Source of the DNA: Escherichia coli
GTDB lineage: Bacteria > Pseudomonadota > Gammaproteobacteria > Enterobacterales > Enterobacteriaceae
Strand: one strand, 5' to 3'
Assembly (NCBI RefSeq): GCF_045037415.1
Contig: NZ_CP173438.1
DNA length: 64,000 nt
Shown one piece after another: positions 13,045 to 15,395 of the stretch (position 1 is the stretch's first letter; each line of letters starts with the position of its first letter). A program made the translations under genes and the position numbers. The notes below the pieces were generated by a model, which saw nothing but the letters and a program-made list of their open reading frames with translations, did not search any database and was not told the origin of the DNA.

Positions 13045-13407
13045 TGGTGGAGCTGGCGGGAGTTGAACCCGCGTCCGAAATTCCTACATCCTCGGTACTA
13101 CATGCTTAGTCAGTCTTTACATTCGCTTGCCAGCTGCGGACGGACACGCCACTAACAAACTAGCCTGATTAAGTTTTAACGCTTCAACCCCAGGCAGGGC
13201 TTCCACGCGATCTCTTTTGGGTTTGACCTCTCTTGATCCCCGTCCTAAGAGCGGAGGCTAGGGAGAGAGGGCTCTAAGCAGGTTATTAAGCTGCTAAAGC
13301 GTAGTTTTCGTCGTTTGCGACTATTTTTTGCGGCTTTTTACGAGGCCAACCGCCCCTCGGCATGCACCTTGGGTTTCGCAAATCCCGTCGAATCCAGAAT
13401 CAGCCCC
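13045..13407 (-). ncRNA. ssrA: tmRNA (SsrA, 10Sa RNA), 363 nt
   Basis: Minus strand reads GGGGCUGAUUCUGGAUUCGACGGG ... CUCCACCA with the tRNA-like acceptor/T-arm; internal tag reading frame GCAAACGACGAAAACTACGCTTTAGCAGCTTAA (ANDENYALAA-stop) lies near 13283-13315. Confidence 0.97.
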
Positions 13408-13621: not shown

Positions 13622-14104
13622 TTAACGATGGGCGTTTTTCATGATACGCGCTTTATCCACCTGCCATTCGCGTTCTTTGATATCTGAACGTTTATCGTGC
13701 TGTTTTTTACCTTTGGCGACGCCGATTTTCACTTTGCACCAGGCATTTTTCCAGTACAGGGAGAGCGCCACTACGGTATAGCCTTCTCGATTTACGCGAC
13801 CGTACAATGAGTCCAGTTCGCGCTGGTTGAGAAGTAACTTGCGGGTACGGGTAGGATCGCACACCACATGCGTGGAGGCCACAGCCATTGGCGTGATGTT
13901 AGCGCCAAACAGAAATGCCTCTCCGTCACGCAGAAGGACGTAGCTGTCGCTGATATTGGCTTTTCCTGCACGCAGGGATTTAACCTCCCAGCCTTGCAGG
14001 GCAAGTCCCGCTTCGAACTCTTCTTCGATAAAGTATTCGTGACGGGCGCGCTTGTTAAGCGCGATGGTCGCTGAACCAGGTTTATGTGCTTTTTTCTTCG
14101 TCAT
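13622..14104 (-). CDS. smpB: SmpB, SsrA-binding protein
   Basis: 160-aa [50 protein letters not shown]...; recognised as SmpB. Confidence 0.95.
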
Positions 14105-14235
14105 AAGCGTCGTGAATCATCGGTAATCTGAAATCGAAAACACCCCATATCAATCCTGCGGGGGACAAGGCTCTATCTTAGCATGATCCCGATGTTACCC
14201 AGCGCCGGGATAGCGTTTTTTTTACAGCAGGATAA

Positions 14236-14712
14236 ATGATATTATTTGTTGGATTTTTGTTGATGGAAATTGTTATGCCTCAGATTAGCCGGACCGCACT
14301 GGTACCCTACAGCGCGGAGCAAATGTATCAGTTAGTGAATGACGTTCAGTCTTATCCTCAGTTTTTACCAGGGTGCACTGGAAGCCGGATTCTGGAGTCC
14401 ACTCCTGGGCAGATGACCGCTGCGGTAGATGTGTCTAAGGCTGGGATCAGCAAAACGTTTACAACCCGCAACCAGTTGACCAGTAATCAAAGTATTCTCA
14501 TGAGTCTGGTTGATGGACCGTTTAAGAAATTGATAGGCGGTTGGAAGTTTACGCCGTTGAGCCAGGACGCGTGCCGTATTGAGTTTCATCTCGACTTTGA
14601 GTTTACCAATAAGTTGATTGAACTCGCCTTTGGTCGTGTGTTTAAAGAGCTGGCAGCTAATATGGTGCAGGCTTTTACTGTTCGTGCAAAAGAGGTCTAC
14701 AGTGCCAGGTAA
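14236..14712 (+). CDS. ratA: RatA/PasT, SRPBCC (polyketide cyclase-like) protein
   Basis: 158-aa ORF ...[34 protein letters not shown]...; the start could be the downstream Met. Confidence 0.85.
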
Positions 14713-14992
14713 AATTGCCGTTGAGGTGGCTTATGCGCTACCTGAGAAGCAGTACCTGCAGCGCGTGACGTTGCAGGAGGGCGCGACGGTTGAAGAAGCT
14801 ATTCGCGCCAGTGGTTTGCTGGAATTGCGTACCGATATCGATTTAACTAAAAACAAAGTCGGCATTTACAGCCGTCCGGCAAAACTCAGCGATATTGTGC
14901 ATGATGGCGATCGGGTGGAGATTTATCGTCCTCTCATTGCCGATCCGAAAGAGCTTCGCAGGCAACGAGCAGAAAAATCAGCGAATAAATAA
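14702..14992 (+). CDS. ratB: RatB/PasI (YfjF), RnfH-family small protein
   Basis: In-frame part of track ORF 14618..14992; start placed at GTG 14702 ([27 protein letters not shown]...), overlapping the ratA stop by 11 nt. Start codon is uncertain. Confidence 0.75.
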
Positions 14993-15053
14993 CAGACAGA
15001 AAAAAGGTGCTCATTGAGCACCTTTTTTAACGTCTTTGAGAGCAACTTTATTA

Positions 15054-15395
15054 TTAGTTACCACTCAGCGCAGGTTTGTTATCAATGTTGGTCAACACAC
15101 CGCTACTGTTAAAGGTCAGCGTCAGCGTTTGCTGCGTTACACCTTCATGACCAGGTTGCTGGCGGAAGACATAGAACCAGGTATTTGTACCAAATGGATC
15201 GGACATCAGCGGTGTACCCAATGCGTACGCAACTTGTTGTTGCGTCATGCCAACACGTATTTTGGATACGTCGTTAGCGGTCAGATAGTTCCCCTGGTTG
15301 ATGTCAGGACGGTAAACCACTCGCTCCAGAGTGGAACAGCCTGCGGTCAACATCAATAGTACTGCTGCTGCAGCAGTCAGCGTTTTACAGCGCAT
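15054..15395 (-). CDS. bamE: BamE (SmpA), outer-membrane lipoprotein of the BAM complex
   Basis: 113-aa [38 protein letters not shown]... with a lipobox (LTAGC). Confidence 0.95.

Follow-up and report, generated by a model that had tools for sequence, protein, structure and literature searches.

ratB of Escherichia coli very probably starts at the GTG codon that overlaps the end of ratA

The genes ratA and ratB of Escherichia coli, also known as pasT and pasI, overlap, and the extent of the overlap depends on the codon from which ratB is translated. In the window, i.e. the whole stretch of 64,000 nucleotides that was analysed, a first-pass annotation had reported an open reading frame of 124 codons on the plus strand (14618..14992) beginning with ATG. 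The frame exists as described, the codon at 14618 however is TTG; the lister of open reading frames writes every start codon as M, which probably is the source of the ATG reading. As likewise reported, ratB would overlap ratA by 95 nt if it began at 14618, the ratA stop codon TAA being located at 14710-14712, and by 11 nt if it began at an in-frame GTG at 14702. The latter gives a protein of 96 residues which begins V(fM)-PGKIAVEV. The choice between these two starts had been presented as genuinely ambiguous and as one which sequence alone cannot decide. Where, then, does ratB begin?

Concerning the genes themselves, the identification as ratA and as RnfH-like ratB was correct, and smpB and ssrA do adjoin the pair. 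The gene order in the window is ssrA, smpB (minus strand), ratA, ratB (plus strand) and bamE (minus strand). The rnfH-type gene thus directly follows a START/Coq10-like gene, is divergent from smpB and lies next to bamE (smpA), which is the neighbourhood of ratA-linked RnfH proteins, START-RnfH-SmpB-SmpA, described by Iyer et al. 2006 (PMC1779556). RefSeq places ratA at 14275..14712 and ratB, under the name yfjF, at 14702..14992, both in strain SK1144 and when mapped from K-12. At this locus SK1144 and KSEC38 are 100% identical to the window, and nucleotide identity to K-12 is 96.3% over a query of 961 nt (window 14100-15060). The neighbouring features are:

13045..13407, minus strand: ssrA (tmRNA) with the tag ANDENYALAA (ARAGORN, RefSeq)
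13622..14104, minus strand: smpB, divergent from ratAB (open reading frame, Pfam SmpB 1.5e-57, RefSeq)
15000..15028, no strand assigned: GC-rich hairpin with an A-run on one side and a T-run on the other, between ratB and the convergent bamE (terminator scan, minus strand)

The hairpin has 13 bp and reads on the plus strand as the stem GGTGCTC...GAGCACC followed by TTTTTT. It is a probable bidirectional intrinsic terminator shared by ratB and bamE, its role on the plus strand being suggested by this arrangement. Another terminator-like hairpin with a T-run, AGCGCCGGGATAGCGTT TTTTTT, occupies 14201-14226 (plus strand) in the divergent intergenic region of smpB and ratA, directly upstream of the ratA promoter.

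The long ratB frame does not contain two candidate starts, as had been implied, but six in-frame NTG codons; from the upstream stop to 14702 the ratB frame of the window lacks any ATG. We scored the candidates by pairing the 15 nt upstream of each with the 3' end of 16S rRNA:

14618, plus strand: TTG, anti-Shine-Dalgarno duplex of -1.0 kcal/mol
14630, plus strand: TTG, duplex of +0.4 kcal/mol
14636, plus strand: GTG, duplex of -0.9 kcal/mol
14684, plus strand: GTG, duplex of -2.5 kcal/mol
14702, plus strand: GTG, duplex of -6.5 kcal/mol
14726, plus strand: GTG, duplex of +0.9 kcal/mol

All 3185 NTG codons on the plus strand of the window served as background, with a mean of -1.8 kcal/mol and 5.4% reaching -6. 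The strong duplex before GTG 14702 is formed by AAGAGG, which is built from the ratA codons AAA-GAG-GTC (Lys-Glu-Val). Since a Shine-Dalgarno sequence precedes GTG 14702 only, the other five candidates ranging from -2.5 to +0.9 kcal/mol, sequence alone already favours this codon, and the claim that it cannot decide was overstated. The features which follow from the start at 14702 are:

14690..14695, plus strand: Shine-Dalgarno sequence AAGAGG of ratB, 6 nt before the GTG, -6.5 kcal/mol
14702..14704, plus strand: ratB start codon GTG, conserved in position, cloned as 'original SC (GTG)' (PMC7424257)
14702..14712, plus strand: ratA/ratB overlap of 11 nt, GTGCCAGGTAA, read from the sequence
14702..14992, plus strand: ratB/yfjF/pasI coding sequence, RnfH family, 96 aa, GTG start and TAA stop (RefSeq, Pfam, NCBIfam, orthologue starts)
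14618..14701, plus strand: 28-codon 5' extension of the ratB frame with TTG start, very probably spurious, the real coding sequence here being the ratA C-terminus only

An alternative which had to be weighed is that RatB is a protein of 124 residues made from TTG 14618, with a 95-nt overlap. Its initiation would then take place within ratA and would not depend on ratA termination. In the window as well as in K-12 the frame stays open from 14618 onward. By chance, 28 codons stay free of stops with a probability of (61/64)^28, about 0.26, and the mere existence of the extension is therefore unremarkable. Orthologue alignments, family models and structures reveal no conserved residues upstream of 14702; it is the presence of such residues which, according to the first-pass annotation, would have spoken for the long form. 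Pfam PF03658 (Ub-RnfH) matches residues 33-115 of the 124-residue frame over model positions 1-83 of 83, and its score of 119.9 bits against a cut-off of 23.7 places RatB in the RnfH family. Positions 3-95 of the NCBIfam equivalog NF002490 (96 positions) align to residues 32-124 (153 bits, cut-off 75). With the solved RnfH chains 2hj1 (Haemophilus influenzae HI0395) and 8ahx_H the alignment of the long frame sets in at its residue 32 and 35, respectively, and at the chains' own residues 3 and 12. Homology to both chains and the work of Iyer et al. 2006 (PMC1779556) suggest that RatB adopts a ubiquitin-like beta-grasp fold.

An exhaustive HMMER search with the 124-residue frame against 1.84 billion cluster representatives returned 3574 relatives. 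GTG 14702 corresponds to residue 29 of the query; in 149 of the best 150 relatives the match begins at query residue 25 or later, mostly at 32-33. The sole exception among these 150, P0138, is either a RatA-RnfH frameshift fusion or an over-long gene call. It belongs to a set of longer RnfH entries (P0001, P0002, P0008, P0014, P0018, P0138) which we rejected as witnesses of a conserved long form, as they represent fusions or carry odd N-termini; the latter are consistent with frameshifts or over-long gene calls. The 28 residues which the 124-residue form would add were found in no relative when distant relatives were searched. In an alignment of 46 diverse RnfH members 1-9 residues precede the first strand, into which RatB of 96 residues fits. 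It is a single stand-alone domain within the range of about 85-105 aa with few residues before the strand I-x-V-E-V-x-Y-A.

The public collections contain several unusual entries of this family. RatA-RnfH 'fusion' proteins resembling artefacts of single-base frameshifts are present (P0001, P0002, P0008, P0014), and one NCBI entry from Klebsiella pneumoniae (P0019, 120 aa), annotated in a long form, begins at an upstream start in the spurious frame.

Because protein entries inherit the choices of gene callers, we analysed directly the DNA of loci from 80 species of Enterobacterales, Pasteurellaceae, Alteromonadales and Kangiella. The proposed check by orthologue alignment gave a clear result for the short form, N-terminal conservation beginning after 14702. 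In 78 of the 80 species the near-invariant Tyr11 is preceded, at a distance of 9-12 codons, by a start codon, which is GTG in 65 and ATG in 13, and at this consensus start the mean Shine-Dalgarno energy is -5.9 kcal/mol, with -6 or better in 83% of the 78 species. The two exceptions, Acerihabitans and Kangiella, retain a GTG preceded by a Shine-Dalgarno sequence at the end of ratA and have extra residues after it. In Acerihabitans, GAAAGAGGTTTATC-GTG and an overlap of 11 nt are preserved, and a stretch of low complexity, about 52 codons long, has been inserted behind the start. The Kangiella site reads GGAG-N8-GTG, and here ratA and rnfH do not overlap. In RnfH of Acerihabitans arboris (L063:1333-1519) the insertion is rich in Gly, Ala, Pro and Thr and separates the start from the conserved domain.

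Open-frame NTG codons at least 30 codons upstream are found in 45 of the 80 species and might be counted for a long form. Far-upstream candidates across species however have a mean Shine-Dalgarno energy of only -1.4 kcal/mol (n=105), and in 35 of the 80 species an in-frame stop lies nearer to the domain than that of E. coli, which excludes a long form of E. coli length there.

In 70 of the 80 loci ratA lies directly upstream of rnfH. Ten Pasteurellaceae loci (L068-L070, L072, L073, L075-L077, L079, L080) contain no ratA within 1.5 kb upstream, and in them an ATG at the homologous position serves as the start of rnfH. The evidence for the start in these Pasteurellaceae is independent of any ratA overlap. 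In several of them rnfH is preceded by a conserved promoter-like element resembling CGCTATAAT. Even among Gammaproteobacteria, rnfH is thus not always paired with ratA.

Substitution patterns tell which frame is used upstream of the GTG. From 60 loci we aligned the 84 nt corresponding to window 14617-14700 on the VQAF motif of RatA; the ratA stop was not used as anchor, since RatA C-termini differ by 1-3 residues. Column entropy at ratA codon positions 1, 2 and 3 is 0.33, 0.21 and 1.22, respectively, and differences from E. coli number 201, 135 and 845. Third positions of ratA are second positions of the ratB frame, where each change alters the amino acid. Translated in the RatA frame, the same 84 nt are 86% identical to E. 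coli at the amino-acid level, as compared to 45% when translated in the ratB frame, and the latter frame is interrupted by stops within the 27 aligned upstream codons in 18 of 59 species. Upstream of 14702, ratA alone is under coding constraint. The Shine-Dalgarno sequence of ratB seems to leave its own trace within ratA: of 60 species, 58 use GAG for the Glu at 14692-14694, as compared to 26 and 41 at two further conserved Glu codons of ratA. This bias suggests a synonymous constraint on ratA which would keep the GAGG of the ratB Shine-Dalgarno sequence. On these sequence comparisons the 124-residue form from TTG 14618 is already contradicted, and we regard it as extremely improbable.

A second alternative is a minor isoform of 102 residues from GTG 14684, made beside the main product of GTG 14702. 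The codon is in frame; across species, in-frame NTG codons occur 14-29 codons before Tyr11 in 26 of 80, and several species carry an NTG at the homologous position, 15-16 codons upstream. Against this, the duplex before GTG 14684 is weak, mid-range candidates across species have a mean Shine-Dalgarno energy of -1.6 kcal/mol, and tetracycline ribosome profiling (PMC4909307 supplement) lists no alternative start for yfjF up to 60 nt away from the annotated one in either direction. Moreover, the codon arises only where Arg-Ala of ratA reads CGT-GCN and is therefore incidental to ratA coding. Such an isoform thus seems very unlikely.

Given its range of 60 nt, the tetracycline profiling is silent on 14618-14636. 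Other published data sets offer little on RatB: the protein is absent from the N-terminomics supplement, start data for RatB were not found in the Giess 2017 supplement, and the INRI-seq supplement lists internal sites for ratA only and none for RatB. Neither a measured N-terminus nor an initiation peak of RatB thus came to light in these sources. Tagged RatB was undetectable in a 2026 preprint (bioRxiv 10.64898/2026.05.04.722385). Fino et al. cloned pasI from the 'original SC (GTG)', which is the same GTG as 14702 (PMC7424257).

We are thus highly confident that ratB (yfjF, pasI) is translated from GTG 14702 into a 96-residue protein of the RnfH family, and equally so that the 28 codons from TTG 14618 up to 14702 lie open by accident, in the +1 frame of the conserved C-terminal coding region of ratA, and do not belong to RatB. 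The ambiguity was not a genuine one, as the long frame begins with a TTG devoid of a Shine-Dalgarno sequence and RefSeq already uses GTG 14702. Since RefSeq annotates yfjF at 14702..14992, the question of the start is settled in the annotation; the ratB start is correctly placed there, and the junction is a known, ordinary short gene overlap. The importance of the ratB start is small, annotation and published constructs already using this GTG. What our analysis adds is independent comparative support from 80 species by the codon-position signature, the conservation of the Shine-Dalgarno sequence and the stops in the alternative frame.

The start-codon error of consequence at this locus is that of ratA, whose 158-aa form begins at 14236; it had not been flagged in the first-pass annotation and was resolved between 2016 and 2025. 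The two parts of the old reading frame are:

14236..14274, plus strand: non-physiological N-terminal extension of 13 codons of the 158-aa ratA frame, overlapping the ratAB promoter
14275..14712, plus strand: ratA/pasT coding sequence, physiological form of 145 aa, starting at Met14 (MPQISR) (RefSeq, NCBIfam, profiling, mutagenesis)

The NCBIfam ratA model begins at residue 14 of the 158-aa frame. Tetracycline ribosome profiling in 2016 reported a new ratA start at +39 nt (PMC4909307 supplement), and the Met14 start of RatA was confirmed by mutagenesis and intact mass (PMC11988751). The same study located a sigma-70 -10 box inside the old 158-aa frame and found the mRNA to lack Met1. TATTAT at 14240-14245 is a candidate for the ratAB -10 box in the window.

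The mis-annotated start of ratA led to a decade of 'toxin' literature. RatA toxicity has been shown to be an artefact of the over-expressed 158-aa form, in vivo only the 145-aa form being present (PMC11988751). The designation PasT/PasI as a toxin-antitoxin pair, which the first-pass annotation had adopted, is outdated; pasTI is reported not to constitute such a pair, RatA/PasT being instead a ubiquinone chaperone of Coq10 type (PMC7424257; PMC11988751; bioRxiv 10.64898/2026.05.04.722385). An explanation of the overlap as autoregulatory coupling of a type II pair, with PasT as toxin and PasI as antitoxin, may still appeal to the product name of RatA in RefSeq and NCBIfam, 'type II toxin-antitoxin system toxin', and to the relief of toxicity by PasI reported by Norton and Mulvey 2012 (PMC3464220). 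Yet the toxicity stems only from the over-expressed, mis-annotated RatA, expression of pasT is non-toxic and ratB deletions are viable (PMC7424257), a RatA-RatB complex was not obtained (bioRxiv 10.64898/2026.05.04.722385), and it is unusual for the 'toxin' gene to precede its partner. Nor do the two genes behave as one module, as expected of a type II system: ratA is widespread without ratB (PMC7424257), and rnfH occurs without ratA within 1.5 kb in the ten Pasteurellaceae loci. We give this explanation hardly any credence.

If ratB starts at GTG 14702, how might the two genes be coupled? The overlap of ratA and ratB is 8 nt in 38 loci and 11 nt in 24 (including E. coli), with 17, 20, 4 or 1 nt in a few. 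Among the 68 species with a located upstream ratA stop, 62 thus have an overlap of 8 or 11 nt, and in all 68 the ratA stop and the ratB start are 1-20 nt apart. In our reading ratA and ratB form a bicistronic operon, whose promoter lies in part within the former 158-aa annotation of ratA. Both the Shine-Dalgarno sequence (14690-14695) and the start codon of ratB are embedded in the final seven codons of ratA, and the stop of ratA (14710-14712) falls 8 nt past the first base of the ratB GTG, so that a ribosome terminating at ratA covers both the Shine-Dalgarno sequence and the GTG. This ribosome might re-initiate a few nt upstream, aided by the Shine-Dalgarno sequence, and/or keep the site unfolded for a new 30S subunit. 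RatB would hereby be made in rough proportion to RatA.

Translational coupling of this kind across the ratA/ratB overlap is likely. Its support is indirect and comes from the conserved junction, by similar copy numbers per cell (about 30 for RatA and about 50 for RatB, as cited in PMC7424257) and by the drop of ratB upon deletion of ratA (log2FC -6.75; bioRxiv 10.64898/2026.05.04.722385). The deletion does not isolate translation: together with the reading frame it removes the -10 box (PMC11988751), and loss of the promoter could explain the drop equally well. In E. coli, termination-reinitiation has been demonstrated for stop-start distances of -8 to +10 nt (PMC10666635). The 8-nt overlap of 38 loci is inside this range and the 11-nt overlap of the window just beyond it.

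A start at GTG 14702 is also compatible with independent initiation, in which a free 30S subunit binds the Shine-Dalgarno sequence and the overlap merely reflects genome compaction. This is possible, if less likely than coupling. The Shine-Dalgarno sequence is strong, conserved and apparently synonymously constrained, the non-overlapping rnfH of Kangiella has its own GGAG, rnfH stands alone with its own promoter in Pasteurellaceae, the 11-nt overlap exceeds the range shown for reinitiation, and no functional or physical link between RatA and RatB has been demonstrated (PMC7424257; bioRxiv 10.64898/2026.05.04.722385). Indirect evidence against free initiation is the narrow stop-start spacing in 68 of 68 species, kept even after the Acerihabitans insertion; moreover, a terminating ribosome is physically over the Shine-Dalgarno sequence and start, and the copy numbers of RatA and RatB are similar.

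A hairpin sequestering the Shine-Dalgarno sequence, had it held, would have made ratB translation dependent on ratA ribosomes to open the site. In the minimum free energy fold of 14650-14770 the bases 14692-14695 pair with 14672-14675. We rejected this hairpin as unsupported: it is no better than shuffled sequences (z = -1.2), its pairs at ratA wobble positions are canonical in 37-50% across 60 orthologues and thus not maintained, and convincing compensatory changes were not seen; shifted controls reach 43-60%, as compared to 71% observed. The pairs which are conserved are so because of conserved amino acids.

A more speculative and improbable idea is that the tight junction reflects selection for a fixed stoichiometry of RatA and RatB as proteins working together, in which RatB might be a ubiquitin-like adaptor docking RatA, the Coq10-like ubiquinone shuttle, on a respiratory complex. 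The adaptor role is modelled on RnfH, which is itself one of the subunits of the Rnf complex; the stoichiometry is suggested by the 8- or 11-nt overlaps in 62 of 68 species, the constraint on the Shine-Dalgarno sequence and the junction kept after the insertion of about 52 codons. If true, it would give RatB a function, against the reported absence of a RatA-RatB link.

Among known systems, RatB/YfjF of K-12 (b2618, RefSeq) is the closest counterpart, with the same position between ratA and bamE, a GTG start, 96 aa and an overlap of 11 nt. RatB of the window has Ile65 where K-12-type sequences have Ser65, and RatA has S90/D111 in place of N90/E111 of K-12. The latter two residues match the non-silent changes by which pasT was reported to differ from ratA, and the window thus carries a PasT-type allele, from another lineage than K-12. 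PasT/PasI of uropathogenic E. coli CFT073 is the orthologous operon, whose pasI was cloned from the same GTG as ratB; its original toxin-antitoxin reading has since been rejected, PasT being a Coq10 homologue. With RnfH of the Rnf complex (8ahx_H) and HI0395 (2hj1), RatB has PF03658 in common and shares homology across the whole domain from the first beta-strand, which in these chains starts only 2-11 residues from the N-terminus. Unlike RnfH of the Rnf complex, ratB is not located in an rnf operon and belongs to the ratA-linked subgroup near smpB/bamE (PMC1779556). The coupled overlaps described by Huber et al. 2019, 2023 are likewise co-directional, with a start just before the upstream stop and a Shine-Dalgarno sequence inside the upstream gene. 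In that work reinitiation is less efficient at -8 nt and longer overlaps are described only as rare (PMC10666635); as compared to the common 4 or 1 nt of such coupled pairs, ratA and ratB overlap by 11 nt, and by 8 nt in many relatives.
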